From: an uncultured Desulfobacteraceae bacterium
GTDB taxonomy: Bacteria > Desulfobacterota > DSM-4660 > Desulfatiglandales > HGW-15
NCBI GenBank assembly: GCA_964644375.1
Contig: CAZXWJ010000001.1
Coordinates: forward strand, 2,124-66,123
Direction: 5' to 3'
DNA length: 64,000 nt
In this document: in pieces, positions 22,449-34,824 of the stretch
How the letters are laid out: each line of letters opens with the position of its first letter
How positions within the stretch are numbered: position 1 is the stretch's first letter
Position numbers and translations under genes: made by a program
The notes under the pieces: generated by a model
Seen by the model: the letters and a program-made list of their open reading frames with translations, nothing else
Database searches by the model: none
Told to the model about the DNA's origin: nothing

Positions 22449-23399
22449 ATGAATGTGATCAATAGCCTAACCGAACTGCAACACCCATTTGAAAACCCTG
22501 TCCTGACTATCGGCAATTTTGACGGCGTTCACAAGGGACACCTTGCCCTTTTCGACAAGGTAAAGGAAAGGGCCAAAGCCATACACGGCCATTCGGTCGT
22601 CATGACCTTTGATCCCCACCCCTTGAAAGTCATGAAGCAGGGGAACGGTCCCCCACTCATTACGCCCACCCGGCAGAAGCTTGAGCTTATCGCGGAGGCG
22701 GGAATAGATTTCATACTCTGCATCCCTTTTACCCGGGAATTCGCCGAAATTTCGGCGGACGCCTTTGTCCGGGAACTCCTTGTAAGCAGGCTTGGACTGA
22801 AGGAAATTGTCGTCGGTTATGATTACAGTTTCGGGAACCGGCGCGAAGGAAACATTGACCTGCTCAAAAAAATGGGGAAAACTCTCGGATACAGGGTCCA
22901 TGTAGTTAAACCCTTAGTGGTCAATGAAAACCTCGTCTCAAGCACCTCCATCAGAAACCTTGTCAGTGCAGGGAATCTGGTCAGGGCAAAAGAACAGTTG
23001 GGCCGGAATTACCAAGTAACCGGAACCGTGGTCAAAGGAGCGGGCAGGGGAGGAAAACTCCTCGGCTTTCCCACGGCAAACCTGCAACTTGCGGACGAAC
23101 TTATTCCCCGAAAAGGAGTTTATGCCGTCACGGTGTTCATGAACGGCAAGACTTATTACGGGGTCACCAATATCGGCTATAACCCCACATTCGGCAACAA
23201 TGCCCTGTCCATCGAGACCCACCTACTTGATTTTACCGGGAATCTGGAGGGAGAGGTCATCAAGATCAATTTCATCTATCACCTAAGGGATGAAAAGACC
23301 TTCGACTCCATTGAAGAGCTGTCAGACCAGATTACCCTGGACATCCAACATGCAAAAGGCCTACTGGGCATAGGCAACTCGGCCCAACAAATCGGCTAG
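22449..23399 (+). CDS. ribF: Bifunctional riboflavin kinase / FMN adenylyltransferase RibF
   Basis: TIGNFDGVHKGHLAL, the kinase-domain motif GFPTANL, and the overall 316-aa layout. Confidence 0.92.
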   Translation: MNVINSLTELQHPFENPVLTIGNFDGVHKGHLALFDKVKERAKAIHGHSVVMTFDPHPLKVMKQGNGPPLITPTRQKLELIAEAGIDFILCIPFTREFAEISADAFVRELLVSRLGLKEIVVGYDYSFGNRREGNIDLLKKMGKTLGYRVHVVKPLVVNENLVSSTSIRNLVSAGNLVRAKEQLGRNYQVTGTVVKGAGRGGKLLGFPTANLQLADELIPRKGVYAVTVFMNGKTYYGVTNIGYNPTFGNNALSIETHLLDFTGNLEGEVIKINFIYHLRDEKTFDSIEELSDQITLDIQHAKGLLGIGNSAQQIG

Positions 23400-23522: not shown

Positions 23523-24180
23523 ATCCTATTCAGCCGATAACGGGCGGCGGCCTTCTTTTTTTTAAAAAAGATATTTACTTTTCATACCACTTGCTTTATA
23601 AGACCATTCGTCTACGCAGGAGTAAAGCGTTGCAGGACTGTAACCTAAAAAAAGGCAAATAGCCTCCTGAAAAAGGGCAGGCAGGGTAAATAAAATTTTC
23701 CGGTTACGATGCTTCTGGGTTTTATGAAGTTTTGAGACACCATCTGGAAGCCGGAAAAAAATAATTTGATCTGGGATTTCAAGTCGAGGTTGTCGAGAAT
23801 TCAAGTCGGTTTTTTTAGGGTCGCAAAGCTAACTGTAAAACAAAATATTTCGGAGTCGCAACCCTTTTCCGGCCTAAGGAACCTCATCGTTTCTTGCTTC
23901 TTTGGAGAGACACGAGCATTCACCTTTGTTCGATTCAAGTCTAAGAAATTCCCTCGTCAAATAACCCAACAATTATTATGGCATCGAATAAACCCCGTGA
24001 ACGATTGGTTTCCGTGGTTTTATATTTTTGTTCCAAAAAGCGAAACGGCACAGGATTCAGCGGACCATCGAACCTTGATCTTCGTGTTTTGCAATAGCAT
24101 TGATGGAGAGACTCGAGTTTTTTTCAGTCTGGATACCGGTCCGTTTCATCTTCCTTTTCAGGATAGAGAGCAAGAAAAAA

Positions 24181-25506
24181 ATGAATGATTCCTTTCTCAC
24201 TTTTCCAAAGGGGGGCACACATCCCCCTGAGTCAAAAGCACTCACCGAGCACCTCCCGGTGGAGACACTGCCTCTTCCCGAAGAAGTGGATCTCCTCATG
24301 GTTCAACATTTCGGCGCCCCCTGCACCCCTCTGGTGAAAAAGAAGGGAGACGTCACGGAAGGAGACCTAATCGGCCAGGTGGAAAAAGGGCTTGGGGCCG
24401 GCATTCATGCCAGTGTAACCGGCAAGGTAAAGGATATTGGGGTTTCCGTGAATCCTGTATCCGTTCAAACCCCCTCGGTCACGATCAAAAGGGACCCTGA
24501 GGCCGAACCCAGGTCATACACACCCTCAGATTGGACGGCCCTGTCCAGAGAGGACTTGGTCAAACGGATTAAAGACGCCGGGATCGTGGGCATCGGGGGC
24601 GCGGGATTTCCAACCCATGTCAAACTGGCCCCCCCACCGGAGGCAAAGGTCGATACCCTGATCCTCAACGGTGCGGAATGCGAACCCTATCTTACCACGG
24701 ACCATCGACTGATGCTGGAACACCCGGAAGAGGTTCTGGATGGTGCCAAAATCATACTGGCCGTCTTGGGAATCCAGGAGTGCCATATCGGGGTTGAATC
24801 CAACAAGATGGATGCCGTCGAGGCCCTGAGAAAAGCGGCTCGTGATCAGTCGTCCAATGATTTCCGAATCCACGTGGATGCCCTGGAGGTAAAATACCCC
24901 CAGGGTTCCGAGAAACAACTGATTGAGAGCATTACGGGTCGCAGGGTTCCGGCATTCGGGCTGCCCTTTGATGTGGGAACCATTGTCCAGAATGTGGGAA
25001 CCACCAAGGCCGTTTATGACGCTGCGGTCCTGAACAAACCCCTGTACGAGAAGGTGATCACAATCTCGGGAAAAGGCATTGAAAGGCCGGCAAACCTCAA
25101 GGTAAGAATCGGGACCCGGTTGAGCGATATCGTGTCCTACCTTGGTGGAACGAAACCCGGGTTGTCCAAGGTGGTCATGGGCGGTCCCATGATGGGTTTT
25201 GCTGTTTCCACTCTTGATGTCCCGATCACTAAGACGACCTCCGGCATACTTTTCCTCACCGAGGAGGAGATAGATACCCGCCCCCACAGCAACTGTATTA
25301 GATGCGGATGGTGTCTCGATGCCTGCCCCATGGGCTTATCTCCCAATGAAATAGGTATTTACGTGGAAGCAGGTCGAGCCGAGGACACCGCGCCCTTTGG
25401 GGTGTTCGAGTGTTTTGAGTGCGGGTGTTGTGCCTTTGTCTGTCCGGCGAAACGGCCTCTCGTTCAGTTCATTCGTCTCGCCAAGATGAAGGCAAAGAAA
25501 CAATAA
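24181..25506 (+). CDS. rnfC: Rnf complex subunit C (RnfC)
   Basis: N-terminal barrel-sandwich region, a GGAGFPTHVK NADH/FMN-type block, and two 4Fe-4S motifs (CIRCGWCLDACP and CFECGCCAFVCP). The conserved N-terminus starts at ATG 24181. Confidence 0.92.
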   Translation: MNDSFLTFPKGGTHPPESKALTEHLPVETLPLPEEVDLLMVQHFGAPCTPLVKKKGDVTEGDLIGQVEKGLGAGIHASVTGKVKDIGVSVNPVSVQTPSVTIKRDPEAEPRSYTPSDWTALSREDLVKRIKDAGIVGIGGAGFPTHVKLAPPPEAKVDTLILNGAECEPYLTTDHRLMLEHPEEVLDGAKIILAVLGIQECHIGVESNKMDAVEALRKAARDQSSNDFRIHVDALEVKYPQGSEKQLIESITGRRVPAFGLPFDVGTIVQNVGTTKAVYDAAVLNKPLYEKVITISGKGIERPANLKVRIGTRLSDIVSYLGGTKPGLSKVVMGGPMMGFAVSTLDVPITKTTSGILFLTEEEIDTRPHSNCIRCGWCLDACPMGLSPNEIGIYVEAGRAEDTAPFGVFECFECGCCAFVCPAKRPLVQFIRLAKMKAKKQ

Positions 25507-25527: not shown

Positions 25528-26583
25528 ATCGAAGAGCCAGCGAAAGAGATCACGCCTGCAGCGACTGATCATTTTCTGTGGGCCGTTTCCATCTCCCCTC
25601 ATGTCAAGAGTGGAGAATCGGTAGAGAAGATCATGTGGACGGTGGTGGCCTGCCTAATGCCGCCCCTCATTTTGTCGATTTTCATCTTCGGCTTCCAGAC
25701 CCTTATCATCACCCTGATCAGCGTGGGAAGCTGCATAGCAGCTGAAGCAGTTTCCCAGAAGCTTCTTAAGCGGCCCGTGACGATCAAGGACGGGAGTGCC
25801 GTCATTACGGGTCTTCTTTTGGCCTATATTATCCCACCGGGCGTCCCTTACTGGTTGCCCATTCTGGGATCCGTCATGGCCATTTATGTTGCCAAACATC
25901 TCTTAGGGGGAGTCGGCTTCAATATTTTCAACCCCGCCCTGATCGGACGTGCCTTTCTGGTCGCCAGCTTTCCCGTGGCCATGACATCGGCATGGCTCAC
26001 TCCTATCCGGGACGCCTCCGTTTTCAAGTATATGGGTACCGGGGTGGACGCACTTTCCACAGCCACGCCCCTCTATATTCTCAAGCATTACGGGATCGGC
26101 GCGGTCATCGAAAAATTCGGTTCTATGTCAACTATTTATACCGATTTCTTCTTGGGCTGGCGACCGGGCTGTATCGGTGAGACTTCGGGGCTTCTGCTTC
26201 TCCTTGGGGGGCTCTATTTGATTTATAAAAAATATATCACCTGGCACATTCCTGTTTCGGTCATTGTGTCGGTTGCCTTCTTTACCTGGGTCTTCGGCGG
26301 AGAAGGGCTCTTCACGGGTAATCCTTTGCTGGCCGTTCTTTCCGGCGGAGTGATCATCGGAGCCTTTTATATGGCCACAGATTACGTGACATCTCCGAAT
26401 AACAAAACCGCCAAGCTTATTTTCGGTGCCGGCATCGGCGCCCTGACGGTTCTTATTCGTTTCAAAGGCGGATACCCTGAGGGCGTATGTTATGCCATTT
26501 TACTCATGAATCCGCTTACGCCCGCTCTTGAGGGGTGGTTTAAACCCAAGCGTTTTGCCCTGCCGAAAGGTGCTGAAAAATGA
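25528..26583 (+). CDS. rnfD: Rnf complex subunit D (RnfD); start codon uncertain (first ATG at 25633)
   Basis: NqrB/RnfD polytopic pattern with the flavinylation-region motif GAFYMATDYVTSP. The conserved N-terminal SxSPHxxSG segment (VSISPHVKSGES) lies upstream of the first ATG. ATC 25528 sits 7 nt after GGAG. Confidence 0.88.
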   Translation: MEEPAKEITPAATDHFLWAVSISPHVKSGESVEKIMWTVVACLMPPLILSIFIFGFQTLIITLISVGSCIAAEAVSQKLLKRPVTIKDGSAVITGLLLAYIIPPGVPYWLPILGSVMAIYVAKHLLGGVGFNIFNPALIGRAFLVASFPVAMTSAWLTPIRDASVFKYMGTGVDALSTATPLYILKHYGIGAVIEKFGSMSTIYTDFFLGWRPGCIGETSGLLLLLGGLYLIYKKYITWHIPVSVIVSVAFFTWVFGGEGLFTGNPLLAVLSGGVIIGAFYMATDYVTSPNNKTAKLIFGAGIGALTVLIRFKGGYPEGVCYAILLMNPLTPALEGWFKPKRFALPKGAEK

Positions 26584-28161: not shown

Positions 28162-29124
28162 ATGTCAGTCTTCAAACGGAACAGTCTGTCTGTATGTCTA
28201 CTCTTGGTCCTAGCCCTGGTCTTTCTGACCGGATGCGGCCCAGAACACTCCTTCATTAAGAAGGTCTCTTTCAAAGACGCACAGAGTATCGTGGTCACCT
28301 TCGCCGGTCCTGTCGATGAGGGGTGGGCTAAAGAACTGAGCAACTACCAAGTTGTTGAGAAACCTGACCCCGATATTCGGCTGAATATCTCTACCGTGAC
28401 CGTCTCTCAAGATAGGATGTCCGTGATTCTGGGTTTTGAAGAGGCCTTGAATCAGGATAGCCCCCATATCCTGACCTTGAGTGAAATTCGCTCTGAGGAC
28501 AAATCTTTGGGGACCGCCATTCTCAGTGTCAAGAAGCTCTATGTGGGGTACCTGTTTTCCATCCTGATCGGCGCCATGGTTATCAACAATTTTGTCTTCA
28601 CAAAGTACCTGGGACTGTGCGTCTTTTTCGGCACATCTCAGAAAAAGAGTACGGCTGTGGGGATGGGCATTACCTTTACCCTGGTGATCGTCGTCAGCGC
28701 CATGATGGCTTGGTTCCTCTATCAATTCGTTCTCAAGCCCTATCGACTCGATTTCCTGCAAATTGTCGTCTTTATTGGGCTGGTCTCCCTCTCGGTACAG
28801 GCGGTGGATACCATCCTGAGAAAGGTGAACCCGATGCTGTTCAAGGCCTTCGGGGTTTACCTAGTTCTCGTTATTGCGAATTGTATCATCATCGCTGTAC
28901 CTCTGATTCTTGCGGATAATGAATACAATGGTTGGGAAAGCCTCATGCTTGCCTTTGGCGCTGGAGTCGGCTTTCTAATTGCACTGTTTTTGATGTCTTC
29001 AGTCCGTGAAAAGCTCGAACTGGCCAATGTCCCGCCTACCTTTAAGGGGCTTCCCATAGCCTTTGTTACGGCGGGTCTTTTTGCCCTTGCTTTTCTGGGA
29101 TTTTCCGGTATGTCTATCTTCTAG
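28162..29124 (+). CDS. rnfA: Rnf complex subunit A (RnfA) fused to an N-terminal lipoprotein-signal + Ig-like domain
   Basis: Residues about 125-320 align end to end with RnfA/NqrE (LIGAMVINNFVFTKYLGLCVFFG...VIANCIIIAVPL...FVTAGLFALAFLGFSG). Residues 1-124 form a signal peptide with lipobox LTGC plus a beta-rich domain. No stop codon separates the two parts. Confidence 0.88.
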   Translation: MSVFKRNSLSVCLLLVLALVFLTGCGPEHSFIKKVSFKDAQSIVVTFAGPVDEGWAKELSNYQVVEKPDPDIRLNISTVTVSQDRMSVILGFEEALNQDSPHILTLSEIRSEDKSLGTAILSVKKLYVGYLFSILIGAMVINNFVFTKYLGLCVFFGTSQKKSTAVGMGITFTLVIVVSAMMAWFLYQFVLKPYRLDFLQIVVFIGLVSLSVQAVDTILRKVNPMLFKAFGVYLVLVIANCIIIAVPLILADNEYNGWESLMLAFGAGVGFLIALFLMSSVREKLELANVPPTFKGLPIAFVTAGLFALAFLGFSGMSIF

Positions 29125-29272: not shown

Positions 29273-30139
29273 ATGGATCCTGCATTATTAAAACTGGCCC
29301 TCGGCGGTCTGGCTGTTTTAGGTTGTATTGGTCTTTTTTTCGGTATTGGCCTGGCCTTGGCCGCACACAAATTTGCCGTTAAGGCCAATCCACAGGTTGA
29401 AGAAGTCCTTGAAGTACTTGCAGGCGCCCAGTGAGGCGGCTGCGGCTTCGCCGGGTGCGAAGCATATGCCGAGGCCGTTGTCAATGATCCCGATGTCCCA
29501 CCCAATCTCTGCTTTCCCGGTAAGGCGGCCGTAGCGGAGTTGGTGGCGGAGATTACAGGCAAAAAAATGGCTGCTGTAGAAGACATGGTGGCCGCCGTAC
29601 GATGTTCAAGACAGGAAGGCAAAGTCGAACAAAAATACCGCTACATAGGTTACGGCTCATGCACGGGTGCCAATCTTGCTTTTGGAGGACCTCAGGGGTG
29701 CTCCTACGCGTGTGTGGGGTTGGGAGAGTGTGCGGATGCCTGCCCCTTTGACGCCATCACTATGGTGGACGGTTTCCCCCGGATTGATACCGAGGCCTGT
29801 GTGGGATGCGGGAGTTGTGTACGCACCTGCCCGAAAAAAATTATCGAACTCATTCCACTCAAGGCAAGGGTCTGGGTTCCCTGCAGCACCAAGGATCCCG
29901 GCAAAGCAGTACGTAAGATCTGCGAGATCGGTTGTATATCCTGTAAGATGTGCGTAAAGGTGTGCCCTGCAAAGGCCGTCACCCTTGAGGACAATATCGT
30001 CAAAATCGACCAGCAGAAGTGCCTGGACTACGGTTCAGAGTGTGGTGAAATCTGTGTGGAAAAGTGTCCGAGAAATATTTTCAGGCCCTACTCTACCGAT
30101 CAGGAAAAAGGCAGAGGCACCCTGACTGCGGCAGGCTGA
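29273..30139 (+). CDS. rnfB: Rnf complex subunit B (RnfB), read through in-frame TGA 29432-29434 as probable selenocysteine
   Basis: ORF-track pieces 29240-29434 and 29540-30139 are in the same frame, with no other stop between them. The joined product has an N-terminal TM helix, the motif AQ-[TGA]-GGCGFAGC...NLCFPG (the RnfB C-x2-C-x4-C-x16-C cluster site) and C-terminal polyferredoxin motifs. ATG 29273 lies 6 nt after AGAGGA. Confidence 0.85.
29445..29463 (+). promoter_or_regulatory. SECIS-like hairpin downstream of the rnfB TGA
   Basis: GCTTCGC-CGGGT-GCGAAGC: a perfect 7-bp stem with a 5-nt loop containing GGU, beginning 10 nt after the TGA. A possible lower stem pairs CGGC (29437-29440) with GCCG (29468-29471). 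Confidence 0.6.
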
Positions 30140-30260
30140 CATGATAACCACTTCAAAGGTCTGAGATCCGAATCTCGTAACATCCGGGGAATTACAAAAA
30201 AGTTGCTATCCCCCTGCCGGGATGGTAAAATCGATATCATTTTTTTGCTGGAGGCATGAC

Positions 30261-31319
30261 ATGAAAAACATGGATCAGCTGTCCCTACAAGGGGCCTTAA
30301 ACCGCCGGTCATTTCTTAAACTCTCCGGAATTTTGGGAGTAGGCGTAGCGTCAACCGGACTGGTGCCCCTCACGGCGGAAGCGGTCAGGTTTAACAGAAA
30401 GCAGTACAAGATATCCAAGACCCGACTGGCCATGGGCACGGTCGTTTCCATGACCCTGATTCACACGTCCAGAGACAAGGCTGAAAAGGCGATGGACCTG
30501 GCCTTTGATGAAATCGACAGGTTGACAGGATTGATGAGCCGTTTCGATAATGCCACAGCAGTCGCCTTACTGAACCGTGAGGGTTACCTGAAAGACCTTC
30601 CTCCGGAGGTGGCGCAAGTGGTCGACCGTTCTTTGCAGTACCACAAAGTCAGCCGGGGAGCCTTTGATATTACGGTCAAGCCTGTTGTAGATCTTTTCAA
30701 GAAGTCCTTTGAAGGGGAGGCCGCAAAAGGCCCTTCTGAGAAGGCCCTGAACGAGGCCCTTCAACTGGTGGATGCCGGAAACGTGACTCTTACGGGTCGC
30801 TCCGTTTCTTTCAAAAAGCCTGGAATGGGCATCACTCTGGACGGTATTGCCAAAGGCTACATTGTGGATCGGGCCTCCCAAATTCTTTCGAATCACGGCA
30901 TCAAAAATCATTTGATCAATGCAGGGGGCGACATCAGGACCAGGGGAGAAAAAGCCGAAAAGAAGCCTTGGACCGTCGCGATTCAGGACCCCCAAAAGAA
31001 AAAGAACTATCCCGATATCATACATATGCGAGATGGCGCTGTGGCCACTTCGGGGGATTATGAAATCTACTACGATCGTGAAAAGATGTTTCACCATATT
31101 GTGATCCCCCAAACAGGACTCTCTCCCGAACTGAACGCCAGTGTTTCCGTGCTGGCTGACACGGCCATGGATGCGGACGCCCTTTCGACGAGCGTCTTCG
31201 TCATGGCCCCCGAGAAGGGCATCCGCTTCATCAATACGATGGCCCAGTGTGAGTGCCTCATCATCGCCAAAGAGGGAAATCTGCTGAAATCGAAGGGATG
31301 GAAAAACGCTCAAGCGTAA
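30261..31319 (+). CDS. apbE: FAD:protein FMN transferase ApbE with Tat signal
   Basis: Twin-arginine signal NRRSFLKLSGILGVGVAS. ApbE blocks MGT, DITV, GIAKGY, NAGGDI and VATSGDYE. ATG 30261 lies 6 nt after GGAGG. Confidence 0.9.
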   Translation: MKNMDQLSLQGALNRRSFLKLSGILGVGVASTGLVPLTAEAVRFNRKQYKISKTRLAMGTVVSMTLIHTSRDKAEKAMDLAFDEIDRLTGLMSRFDNATAVALLNREGYLKDLPPEVAQVVDRSLQYHKVSRGAFDITVKPVVDLFKKSFEGEAAKGPSEKALNEALQLVDAGNVTLTGRSVSFKKPGMGITLDGIAKGYIVDRASQILSNHGIKNHLINAGGDIRTRGEKAEKKPWTVAIQDPQKKKNYPDIIHMRDGAVATSGDYEIYYDREKMFHHIVIPQTGLSPELNASVSVLADTAMDADALSTSVFVMAPEKGIRFINTMAQCECLIIAKEGNLLKSKGWKNAQA

Positions 31320-31343
31320 TGATATTTTTTCGCCTTATTGAAA

Positions 31344-31384
31344 AACGGGAGGGTTGCAGAAAAAGCATACCTCCCGTTTTTTTT
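31344..31384 (+). terminator. Rho-independent terminator of the rnf-apbE operon
   Basis: AACGGGAGG ... CCTCCCGTT: a 9-bp stem with a 17-nt loop, followed by an 8-T run. Begins 25 nt after the apbE stop. Confidence 0.7.
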
Positions 31385-31587
31385 AGTCTCAGGCACCGAG
31401 GTAATATCTCACCAAGTTTCTAAGCAGGAATGATGAAGGAACCAAGTGATAAGCGATCAGCCGGAACCAAACATTTTACCGAGATGCGTGGCGGTTATTA
31501 TGATACAATGCCAGATGGCTGATATATTGAGCGATAAATAGCGCTGGGAAGGGTCCGCCCCATAAAATGTCGGGCCTTTGATGTCTG

Positions 31588-33213
31588 TCATTTCCTAGGA
31601 AATGACGGGGGAACGACGACAGGATCGAGACTTGAACCGGAGAGGCTTTGATCGGATGTCTGGTGTGGGGCTTCAGACCAGAGAAATTTTTCTATCTGCA
31701 AAAGCATAGGACGGAGGGTCTGCCGATCCAGAGCGGAAATGGCAACCCCGTTCCATGATTGGGCCAGAGAATCCGCCTCTCGGGCATCGCAGCGATCGCA
31801 TTTGTTGAGCACCAGAAGGGTGGGAATCCTTTCCAGTTCCAGCTTCTTGAGGACTCCTTCAACGGCGGCGATCTGCTCTTCCATTCTGGGGCTGCCGGTA
31901 TCCACCACATGGAGTAGAAAGTCAGCATCCCGGAGTTCTTCCAGGGTGGCTGCAAAGGCCTCCATGAGATCTTCAGGCAGGTCCCGAATAAAACCAACCG
32001 TATCGGTAATAATGACCTCCCGGTCCCGCGGAAACCGCAAGCGTCTGCTGCTCGGATCCAGGGTAGCAAATAGCCTGTCTTCCACAAAGACCTCACTGTG
32101 TGTCAGGGCGTTTAGAAGAGTGGATTTGCCGGCATTGGTATAACCCACGATGGAAATCACGGGCAATCGCTTAGCATTGCGAAGTCGGCGCCGATCCTCC
32201 CTCTGCCTTTTAATCTTCCCGAGTTCCCGGTTCAACTTCGCAATACGCTCCCGAACCCGGCGGCGGTTGATTTCCAGTTTGGTTTCTCCGGGGCCCCTGC
32301 CTCCGATACCTCCCGTCAACCTTGACATGGCGGTGTTTTTTGTAGCCAGCCTGGGCAGTAAATATTTGAGCTGGGCCAATTCCACCTGGATCTTCCCCTC
32401 CCTGGTCACCGCTCTTCTTGCAAAAATATCCAATATGAGCTGGCTTCGATCAATGATCTTCAATTCGGTCAAATCCGTCAGGGTCCTGACCTGGGCCGGA
32501 GTGAGTTCGTGGTCAAAGATCAGGAGATTACAACCGGTCTGAAGGCACCTGAGGGCCAACTCTTGCAGCTTGCCTTTTCCAATCAGAAAGCGGGGATGGG
32601 CCCGTTTCACATTCTGGATGACGGTATCCGTCACATCCAGGTTGTTGGACACGGCCAATTCCCGCAATTCTTCAAGAGATTCTTTGGACCTCCACAAGGG
32701 GCCGGTACTGATACCGACAAGCAACGCACGCTCCTTTTGCTCAGGTTCCCTTGCACTCTCGGCTCTACCGAGCTCATCCTCGAGGGACGCGATCAATGCA
32801 GGAAAATCCACGTCCAATTGTCCGATATTCGGAACCCGTGTGATCCGCCACCCCTTGCCCCGAATATTTCTCGGAAGGATGTGGGCAAAGGATAAGGCCC
32901 CTGGAATACCGTCCTCTCCCGCCTGTACACACACCATAAGGTCCAGGCCGAGAAGGACCAAATCCGTAAGGTCTTCCCCTGACAGGGGTTCTCCATCCAG
33001 GTGGGTATGGACGCAACGAATCCCTTTCAATCTGCCCTTTCCGAGCCTGTACCTGCCCAAATCCGGAATCAGGATATGCCGGTTGTCTCCCACAACCACA
33101 TAGGCGATATCGCCTCTGCGAGTAAGCAACAGGGCGACCTGTCTTTGAATGTCACGGGAAATGGAGGAAATTTGACGTGTCAATTCAGGTGTAATAATCT
33201 CTTTTCCGGCCAC
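31588..33213 (-). CDS. hflX: GTPase HflX with about 155-aa N-terminal extension
   Basis: HflX N-domain (IDRSQLILDIFARRAVTREGKIQVELAQLKYLLPRL). G-domain with GYTNAGKST, DTVGF and NKCD. GTG start. Confidence 0.9.
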   Translation of the reverse strand: MAGKEIITPELTRQISSISRDIQRQVALLLTRRGDIAYVVVGDNRHILIPDLGRYRLGKGRLKGIRCVHTHLDGEPLSGEDLTDLVLLGLDLMVCVQAGEDGIPGALSFAHILPRNIRGKGWRITRVPNIGQLDVDFPALIASLEDELGRAESAREPEQKERALLVGISTGPLWRSKESLEELRELAVSNNLDVTDTVIQNVKRAHPRFLIGKGKLQELALRCLQTGCNLLIFDHELTPAQVRTLTDLTELKIIDRSQLILDIFARRAVTREGKIQVELAQLKYLLPRLATKNTAMSRLTGGIGGRGPGETKLEINRRRVRERIAKLNRELGKIKRQREDRRRLRNAKRLPVISIVGYTNAGKSTLLNALTHSEVFVEDRLFATLDPSSRRLRFPRDREVIITDTVGFIRDLPEDLMEAFAATLEELRDADFLLHVVDTGSPRMEEQIAAVEGVLKKLELERIPTLLVLNKCDRCDAREADSLAQSWNGVAISALDRQTLRPMLLQIEKFLWSEAPHQTSDQSLSGSSLDPVVVPPSFPRK

Positions 33214-33313
33214 TCTTCTCCGGTAGAGATTCTGGAGTTCCTTGATCTGGGCGGCCTTGAGGCCGCCAATTTTCCCTCTTACTCTCTCTATATCTCAGGC
33301 CTCGAAACGCGTA

Positions 33314-34693
33314 CTACGTTGGAAAGGGTTCGCCATATTGATCGTCTTCCGTATAGGCCTCGAAACGCGTACTCTCTTTCTTGAAATAGAGCTTGAAATA
33401 CCCGGTCGGGCCGTTACGCTGCTTGGCAAGAATAATCTCTGCGATATTGGCGTTTTCTTCAGTGACCGGATGATATACTTCATCCCGATATATAAATGCA
33501 ATGACGTCCGCATCCTGCTCGATGGCACCGCTTTCCCTCAAGTCTGCGAGCTGAGGTCGCTTGTTGGGACGGTCTTCCACTTTCCTGTTCAACTGGGAAA
33601 GGGCAACGACCGGCACATTGAGATCCTTGGCAAGGGCCTTAAGGGACCGGGAAATTTCCGCCATTTCAAGCTGACGCGATTCGGCTGATTTTCGGCCATG
33701 AATCAGCTGCATATAGTCAACGATGATGAGACCAATATCTTGTTTCTTTGCAAGTCTTCTGCATTTGGCTTTCATATCAAGTACGCCAATGCCGGAAGAA
33801 TCATCGAGAAAAATGGAGAGAGAGGAGAGGTTATTGGCGGCCTCGGTCAATTTCAACCAGTCCTTATCTCTCAAAAAACCCGTTCGAAGCTTGTTGGCAT
33901 CAATCTGGGCTTCAAAACCGAGCAATCGCATGCCAAGTTGCAGTTTCGACATTTCCAAAGAAAACATGACGACCGCCTTGCCCGTTTTTTCCGCAGCATG
34001 GTAGCCGACGTTCAAGGCAAAGGCCGTTTTGCCCATACTGGGCCTGCCCGCAATGATGATCAGGTCCGAGGGCTGGAGGCCGGCCGTCAAGTTATCAAAG
34101 TCCAAAAATCCCGTAGGCACGCCGGTCAGGGACCCCTCCTGTTCGGCAATACTTTCGAGTTTCCGGAAACTTCCCTTGACGACATCTTCCATGGAGGTGA
34201 AGCTCTCACCGATCTTGTCTTCGGCGATATCAAAAATAGATTGCTCTGCGATATCGAGGAGTTCATCGGTCTCATGCCAGTTTTGAAAGCAGGATTCGGA
34301 TATCACGGAACACTGGTTGATCAGTCTCCTGCGAATGGACAAATCACGTACGATATTGGCATGATAGACGATCCCCGCCGATGTTGAAACGGCATCCACC
34401 AGGGAAACGAGATAGTCCATTCCCCCTGCCTTTTCAAGGAGGTTCTTGCGGGTGAGGTGCTGGGTAAGGGTGATGAGATCGATAGGCTCATTGCTGTTGT
34501 AAAGGGCGGTCATCCCCTCAAAGAGATGAGAGTGGGCCTCGCGGTAGAAATCTTCCAGGGACAAAATATCCATGACCTGGTTCAGGGCATCGTTGTTGAT
34601 CAGGATGCCCGCCAAGATAGCCTGCTCGGCTTCCAAATTGTGCGGAGGAACCTTGAACGATGGAGGGACTAACTTTTCCTTTGTTTGAGGCAT
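33314..34693 (-). CDS. dnaB: Replicative DNA helicase DnaB
   Basis: PPHNLEAEQAILAGIL, Walker A GRPSMGKTAF, and LSQLNR...RESGAIEQDAD. The conserved N-terminus starts at ATG 34693. Confidence 0.93.
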   Translation of the reverse strand: MPQTKEKLVPPSFKVPPHNLEAEQAILAGILINNDALNQVMDILSLEDFYREAHSHLFEGMTALYNSNEPIDLITLTQHLTRKNLLEKAGGMDYLVSLVDAVSTSAGIVYHANIVRDLSIRRRLINQCSVISESCFQNWHETDELLDIAEQSIFDIAEDKIGESFTSMEDVVKGSFRKLESIAEQEGSLTGVPTGFLDFDNLTAGLQPSDLIIIAGRPSMGKTAFALNVGYHAAEKTGKAVVMFSLEMSKLQLGMRLLGFEAQIDANKLRTGFLRDKDWLKLTEAANNLSSLSIFLDDSSGIGVLDMKAKCRRLAKKQDIGLIIVDYMQLIHGRKSAESRQLEMAEISRSLKALAKDLNVPVVALSQLNRKVEDRPNKRPQLADLRESGAIEQDADVIAFIYRDEVYHPVTEENANIAEIILAKQRNGPTGYFKLYFKKESTRFEAYTEDDQYGEPFPT

Positions 34694-34824
34694 ATTGATC
34701 CTTGTTGTTGAGCCACGAGGCCCATGACCCAACCAGAGACCCCCTCTTCGAATGGATGATGGAGTCATTGCAGACCGTGTGTTGGGGCAAACGAAATGAA
34801 ACTGACGCAAGCAAAGGTCTTGCG

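Follow-up and report, generated by a model that had tools for sequence, protein, structure and literature searches.

Why should RnfA, a six-helix subunit in the membrane core of the Rnf complex, carry 126 additional residues in front of its first helix? In many anaerobes Rnf serves as the central ferredoxin:NAD+ ion pump, and the question is raised by a 64,000-nucleotide stretch of DNA (the window, in the following) from an uncultured Desulfobacteraceae bacterium (contig CAZXWJ010000001.1 of assembly GCA_964644375.1), in which rnfA is one open frame of 320 codons. An initial annotation, made from the letters of the window alone, had proposed a lipoprotein-type leader and an immunoglobulin-like (Ig-like) domain fused to RnfA. 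We demonstrate that the fused frame is conserved and that the extension contains a folded domain behind an export signal. The explanation that we favour with moderate confidence is that the protein belongs, as subunit A, to a separate Rnf subtype (rnfCDGEAB-apbE), in which an exported Ig module would be placed beside the RnfG shuttle.

The C-terminal part of the protein is a divergent but genuine RnfA. Residues 132-317 match PF02508 (Rnf-Nqr) with 156.4 bits (cut-off 23.8), and residues 131-317 cover profile positions 3-189 of 190 in TIGR01943 (NCBIfam rnfA) with 194.6 bits. Because these matches begin only at residues 131-132, about 126 residues lie upstream of a full RnfA core, and it is the TIGR01943 score, which falls under the narrower subfamily cut-off of 229.3, that makes the protein a divergent member of its family. 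Foldseek matches the core to the RnfA chains 7zc6_A, 8ahx_A and 9eri_A with 38-42% identity. In comparison with canonical RnfA and NqrE (PF02508; PDB 7ZC6 A, 8AHX A and 9ERI A; NqrE 7XK3 E), residues 127-320 can be aligned with the RnfA profile from one end to the other, whereas the export signal and the Ig-like domain are extra; canonical RnfA paralogues of related genomes are just 36-40% identical to the window core. Together with RnfE, RnfA ligates an intramembrane [2Fe-2S] cluster through two cysteines, which lie on its broken helices I and IV (PMC12174285). The corresponding residues C153 (LGLCVFFG) and C241 (ANCII) are invariant in 52 of 52 aligned relatives, and from this conservation the core is predicted to still ligate the cluster with RnfE. 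The initial annotation had described 124 extra residues without a stop before the core. The single frame of 320 residues bears this out, the strings it quoted are all present in the window (VCLLLVLALVFLTGC, SFKDAQSIVVTFAGPVDEGWAKELSNYQVVEK and LYVGYLFSILIGAMVINNF), and its range 28162-28533 does correspond to residues 1-124, but we place the boundary between domain and core at residues 126/127 (28539/28540) instead. The gene starts 6 nucleotides past the rnfE stop, with AAAAAGGG about 10 nucleotides upstream of the start.

The fusion is a conserved property of a large group of proteins. A word-indexed protein search with residues 1-130 of the window RnfA as query returned 54 protein clusters with 47-97% identity over the extension, nearly all of them 318-323 residues long and with an Rnf-Nqr domain. 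In an alignment of 52 cluster representatives (alignment A1), the 102-residue mature domain is gap-free in every sequence, G24-C25 and 14 further positions within residues 26-126 are invariant, and conservation extends across the junction K124-K125-x-Y127-x-G129. A genomic scan with one genome per species identified 362 loci encoding relatives, the best 80 of which are all of the long form. It is present in the complete genome of the cultured Desulfonema magnum 4be13, in the isolate Desulfobacterales bacterium HSG2 and in a Syntrophus metagenome-assembled genome (MAG). At every locus whose RnfA core is at least 60% identical (about 99 loci, 82 distinct sequences), at least 115 open codons precede the core, with the sole exception of one locus cut by a contig end. 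For the canonical RnfA of related genomes (eight paralogues, 36-40% identical), this number is only 0-18. The survey of RnfA lengths and N-terminal extensions that the initial annotation had suggested thus shows the extension kept in frame at about 100 loci.

The long open reading frame (ORF) could still be an artefact, that is, a frameshift, an assembly error or a lost stop that fused a small lipoprotein gene to rnfA, or only the internal GTG at V128 could be used, yielding an ordinary RnfA of 190 residues. The source is indeed a fragmented MAG of 453 contigs, and the GTG, which had been pointed out as a possible independent start, does exist. However, the same in-frame fusion recurs in about 100 independent assemblies including the complete genome of a cultured strain, no stop or frameshift separates the two parts in any of these loci, the domain is free of indels and the junction is conserved. 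The codon at position 128 is a start-type codon (ATG, GTG or TTG) in just 9 of the 82 distinct homologues and mostly TTC, CTC or CTG, and the internal start was rejected because it is not conserved. In addition, a free-standing domain was not seen among the 16 retrieved domain matches, seven of which were scanned with Pfam; those reaching the length of the core continue into RnfA. In some database members, P0070 (251 residues) and P0067 (258 residues), leader and Ig domain are followed by unrelated sequence; a frameshift or a chimera in the metagenome gene call is the probable cause, and we do not take them as examples of a free-standing domain. Since the in-frame fusion is conserved and the GTG is not, sequence data rule out, to the extent that they can, both an artefact and a core translated on its own. 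The artefact is effectively refuted, this alternative is extremely unlikely in both of its forms, and we are highly confident that an exported domain is fused to RnfA.

The extension folds into a domain of its own. AlphaFold, run on the domain with a domain alignment of 31 sequences, yielded a seven-strand beta-sandwich with a mean predicted local distance difference test (pLDDT) of 90 and a predicted template modelling score (pTM) of 0.81. Its best match in the PDB by Foldseek is the S-layer Ig-like domain of SbsC (4uic; TMq, the TM score normalised to the query, 0.83; root mean square deviation 1.5 Å; 22% identity), followed by Sap and SbsB with TMq of 0.62-0.73. We assigned the domain to this structural class as a seven-strand sandwich that superposes at a TM score above 0.5. 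The extension is thus a folded domain and not an ordinary variable leader, as structure prediction and profile searches, both proposed with the initial annotation, agree. At the profile level, the domain matches Sap among PDB sequences with E 0.002 and, in a set of 1.8 billion representative proteins, giant proteins containing as many as 37 repeats, which Pfam calls Big_5, with E down to 2e-74 summed over 15 repeats. The assignment to SbsA/Big-type Ig-like domains therefore stands for the fold and the profile but not as membership in Pfam Big_5 (PF13205; threshold 23.6 bits), to which the window domain has no match at E up to 1-10; 12 of the 31 relatives gave sub-threshold matches, the best with E 0.0022. 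Residues 1-124 searched against Pfam and NCBIfam gave only noise (DUF1833 with E 0.13; YgdI/LptM lipoprotein leaders with E of about 0.1).

The seven-strand beta-sandwich is common to the RnfA domain, SbsC and SbsB of Geobacillus, Sap of Bacillus anthracis and the Big_5 repeat. The RnfA domain differs from these in that it occurs as a single copy on a polytopic respiratory membrane protein rather than as a tandem array in a surface protein, and in that it has its own invariant E-x-x-D-P-D-I loop. This acidic loop, E66-K-P-D69-P70-D71-I72, is the most conserved motif of the domain and the candidate for its most conserved surface. D69, P70, D71 and I72 are invariant in alignment A1, which is the unbiased figure, as the 100% values for D69-I72 in a wider set of clades arise partly by construction from anchoring the sequences on DPD. 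The motif is retained in distant clades with signal-peptidase-I-type leaders; deviants at D69 are found in loci L013 (NPDI) and L105 (SPDI). An analogous architecture is known from CopC-CopD fusions such as YcnJ (PDB 9C14, CopC-like), in which an exported N-terminal beta-sandwich is likewise placed directly on a multi-helix membrane protein. CopC-type domains align with the RnfA domain at a TMq of about 0.60 with 11-14% sequence identity. The Cu(II) site of CopC uses an N-terminal histidine, whereas the predicted mature N-terminus of RnfA is Cys25; H29 is missing outside the main clade and H102 is replaced by tyrosine in the f61-type clade. A metal-binding, CopC-like reading was rejected because neither histidine is conserved across clades and an N-terminal histidine is lacking.

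How is the domain exported? The leader comprises an n-region with K5/R6, followed by LSVCLLLVLALVF and the lipobox L22-T23-G24-C25, and includes a hydrophobic core. It agrees with the lipobox rule that we applied ([LVI][ASTVI][GAS]C about 15-35 residues from the start, behind a basic n-region and a hydrophobic core). The hydrophobic core varies freely across the 52 aligned relatives, in all of which G24 and C25 are invariant, and the same genome encodes the signal peptidase LspA (G000:C29:28520-29002, 119.7 bits with a cut-off of 73.95). The signal peptide and lipobox of the initial annotation are therefore well founded, and in this lineage RnfA is probably processed as a lipoprotein, judging from these features of the leader. 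In more distant long RnfA proteins, however, the same domain stands behind an A-x-A signal peptide or a Cys-less, anchor-like helix (P0086, P0078 and P0103; loci L104, L106, L107, L012, L013 and L094), so that three kinds of export leader, namely lipobox, A-x-A signal peptide and signal anchor, occur on one domain across clades. The tree of the cores is unrooted, the canonical outgroups having been lost to a motif filter. On it, leaders must have changed between the lipobox and other types at least twice, with five changes as the most parsimonious number, and we rejected the lipobox as an ancestral universal feature for this reason. Both observations are also in favour of the alternative that the leader of the window protein is not processed as a lipoprotein signal at all. 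It could instead remain uncleaved as a seventh transmembrane helix with the N-terminus inside or be removed by signal peptidase I, and the conserved cysteine would then have another purpose or none. In view of the invariant G24-C25 in an otherwise freely variable leader, the canonical L-T-G-C behind a basic n-region and the presence of LspA, this is the less likely course, though by no means a negligible one. What the group has in common is export and the Ig fold, whereas the lipid anchor varies.

An exported domain at this end of RnfA agrees with the orientation of the subunit, as the initial annotation had argued from the topology of RnfA. In Acetobacterium woodii Rnf, the RnfA residues D64/T73 and E126 are located on the extracellular surface (PMC11889175), which together with six helices places the N-terminus of RnfA outside. 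The inverted arrangement of RnfA and RnfE is credited to Saaf et al. 1999 (PMC12174285). In the window RnfA, a manual count on predicted helices gave eight lysine and arginine residues in the predicted cytoplasmic loops and two in the periplasmic loops, plus the invariant K124-K125 at the junction. That one domain is delivered by three different export devices argues strongly for a periplasmic location. Outward N-terminus, export leaders and folded domain together support the earlier suggestion of an extra periplasmic module on the membrane core of Rnf.

The extension has a counterpart in a second subunit. In an even sample of the phylum (401 genomes, 255 genera), long RnfA was found in 16 genomes, and all matches include the extension. 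With the 304-residue RnfG of the window as query, exactly the same 16 genomes gave full-length matches on the same contigs, and the end of RnfG precedes the start of RnfA by about 0.6-0.7 kb. In long-form loci that contain both genes, the RnfG ORFs mostly have about 297-337 residues, the few longer ones reflecting upstream start choices, in contrast to 188-213 residues in seven canonical operons of the same order. Relative to canonical RnfG, the window RnfG has three insertions, at about residues 58-103, 118-140 and 219-255; they are situated in the periplasmic flavin mononucleotide (FMN) domain, and the third directly precedes the flavinylated threonine motif. Unlike canonical Rnf, long RnfA is thus always paired with an RnfG of 300 residues, and because the enlarged RnfG is obligatory, long RnfA marks a distinct Rnf subtype, apparently undescribed so far. 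Among 41 relatives in the order, 17 of the 20 long-form genomes also possess at least one canonical rnfA, so that the long form is a second Rnf and not a replacement. In the window's own genome, too, a canonical rnfA/rnfE set, at least one, is present on short contigs (G000 contigs C437, C431, C188 and C194; L102), so that this organism has Rnf paralogues.

What could the domain do? In published structures, RnfG has the N-terminal helix of RnfA and the ensuing loop as close neighbours, and its anchor forms a bundle with the RnfB anchor and one RnfA helix (PMC9588780). RnfG itself moves as a shuttle and can dock into the cavity of RnfA/E (PMC11889175, PMC12174285). Since the N-terminal helix of RnfA adjoins RnfG and since the domain always occurs with an RnfG that is enlarged by about 100 periplasmic residues, we propose RnfG as the partner of the Ig domain. 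RnfA would be made as one polypeptide of 320 residues and its leader would direct export by the Sec pathway. In this lineage, signal peptidase II would probably cleave before Cys25, which might then be lipid-modified. The sandwich of about 100 residues, of the SbsC/Sap/Big_5 kind, would sit in the periplasm about four residues away from helix 1 of a normal six-helix RnfA. Together with the RnfG insertions it could build a further periplasmic superstructure that surrounds RnfG's mobile FMN domain. This superstructure may brace or guide the flavin shuttle, or shield it, while the shuttle transfers electrons between the RnfA/E cluster and RnfD. A role as RnfG partner is a possibility that stops just short of being probable.

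Several observations weigh against this picture. The lipobox is missing from several branches, and lipidation is therefore not essential to the role of the domain. Long RnfA and long RnfG could also occur together because they descend from one operon lineage (about 15 genera in four families plus the window's own order), and not because they are in physical contact. AlphaFold run on the full-length protein yielded a model of low quality in the membrane part (pLDDT 45-64), which gives no placement of the domain on the core and was set aside for this purpose. Finally, the spacing is tight, with seven residues from Cys25 to strand A and about four (K124-K125-L-Y) from strand G to helix 1. As the termini of a seven-strand Ig fold normally lie at opposite ends, a domain with a lipidated N-terminus and such short spacers would have to lie sideways on the membrane.

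Alternatively, the Ig domain could be a docking platform for a separate periplasmic partner outside the six-subunit complex, such as a soluble cytochrome, another redox protein or a component of the cell envelope. Ig domains of the Big_5/SbsC type are typically modules for protein-protein or surface interactions, and the invariant acidic loop E66-x-x-D69-P-D71 resembles a binding surface. Furthermore, in four of the seven canonical operons of the order a gene for a membrane-anchored multihaem cytochrome c lies directly upstream of rnfC, which implies that Rnf in this group can have periplasmic partners. These cytochrome genes (L097 976-1347, L100 366-1079, L101 1410-1775 and L103 1047-1418) have 4-8 CXXCH motifs. 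In about 95 long-form operons, by contrast, no multihaem cytochrome gene was found upstream of rnfC, and the multihaem ORFs near two of the loci are in unrelated positions; a cytochrome partner within the long-form operon was rejected on this basis. Moreover, no candidate gene for any partner is conserved in or beside these operons, the conserved neighbours being the housekeeping genes ribF, hflX and dnaB, and the perfect coupling to the enlargement of RnfG points to a role within the complex. We consider the docking platform unlikely.

The cytochrome-c-associated Rnf of the Desulfovibrio type resembles the long form in being a Desulfobacterota variant of Rnf with an extra periplasmic component, and both are found in the window's order, often within one genome. 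There, however, the extra part is a separate haem protein and RnfG has about 200 residues, whereas the long form has no cytochrome gene, its extra part consisting of the RnfG insertions and of an Ig domain without cofactor that is fused to RnfA. A bolder extension of the RnfG-partner proposal is that long RnfA and long RnfG define a structurally distinct Rnf class, whose roughly 200 added periplasmic residues, from a lipid-tethered Ig domain and the three RnfG insertions, would enclose the FMN shuttle and insulate it from the periplasm, which in sulfate reducers and syntrophs is rich in cytochromes. Such a complex would be the functional opposite of the cytochrome-c-linked paralogue, a 'closed' ferredoxin:NAD+ pump beside an 'open' one, connected to the periplasm, in the same cell. 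We regard this as quite unlikely.

The gene order rnfC-D-G-E-A-B-apbE is the same in the window and in related loci, and the synteny ribF-rnfCDGEAB-apbE-hflX-dnaB is kept in 30-40 related loci (window 22449-23399 and 30222-34810). The rnf operon is thereby flanked by the flavin-cofactor genes ribF and apbE. Coordinates of all features are collected in the table below. The in-frame TGA of rnfB takes the place of the first cysteine of the N-terminal CX2CX4C Fe-S motif (VLAGAQ-U-GGCGFAGC); the codon is TGA in the related operons L011, L012 and L015 and TGT (Cys) in L013 and L014, a putative selenocysteine/cysteine pair. In D. magnum (L083 1-3300, NZ_CP061800.1, near 2.685 Mb), the long-form cluster starts with rnfD, and the 3 kb upstream contain a methyltransferase-like ORF and unrelated ORFs but no rnfC, which may be located elsewhere in the genome.

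Table. Positions of the rnf genes and of the parts of long RnfA in the window.
Feature	Position	Strand	Evidence or remark
rnfC	24100..25506	+	true start probably downstream of 24100
rnfD	25633..26583	+	from the first ATG; conserved N-terminus may start upstream
rnfG, long, 304 residues	26580..27494	+	three periplasmic insertions relative to canonical RnfG
rnfE, 205 residues	27538..28155	+	ordinary length
rnfA, long form	28162..29124	+	320 codons plus stop; one open frame; TIGR01943/PF02508 matches
Lipoprotein-type signal peptide, residues 1-25	28162..28236	+	sequence; lipobox L22-T23-G24-C25 (Cys codon 28234-28236); G24/C25 invariant
Exported Ig-like beta-sandwich, residues 26-126, seven strands	28237..28539	+	AlphaFold, Foldseek 4uic, Sap profile match, Big_5-repeat matches
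Acidic loop E66-K-P-D69-P70-D71-I72, strands C-D	28357..28377	+	alignment A1; most conserved motif of the domain
RnfA core, residues 127-320, six transmembrane helices	28540..29121	+	PF02508 and TIGR01943; matches to solved chains
Internal GTG (V128)	28543..28545	+	possible separate start suggested by the initial annotation
Cys codons of the [2Fe-2S] ligands of the RnfA core	28618-28620 (C153); 28882-28884 (C241)	+	
rnfB	29273..30139	+	in-frame TGA at 29432-29434
apbE, flavin transferase	30222..31319	+	twin-arginine-like leader (RRSFLK); last gene of the conserved operon

Our literature search found no published description of an RnfA with a lipoprotein leader, an N-terminal extension or an Ig-like domain, or of such an RnfA in Desulfonema, and the words 'Ig-like', 'lipoprotein' and 'extension' do not occur in a 2025 review of RNF and NQR (PMC12174285). 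The long form also has a bearing on annotation, as public records label these proteins plain RnfA or 'NADH-quinone reductase', and neither Pfam nor NCBIfam has a model for the N-terminal domain.

The long form occurs in sulfate reducers that degrade hydrocarbons or aromatic compounds and in syntrophs, organisms in which Rnf-driven reverse electron flow is thought to be critical. It is actively debated how the periplasmic flavin domain of RnfG swings between RnfA/E and RnfD (PMC9588780, PMC11889175, PMC12174285). A natural variant with about 200 added periplasmic residues, which by the proposed layout would lie exactly around the RnfG shuttle, offers a comparative system for this mechanism. Being kept beside canonical Rnf in most of the long-form genomes of the order, it is also a system in which to ask why cells retain Rnf paralogues.

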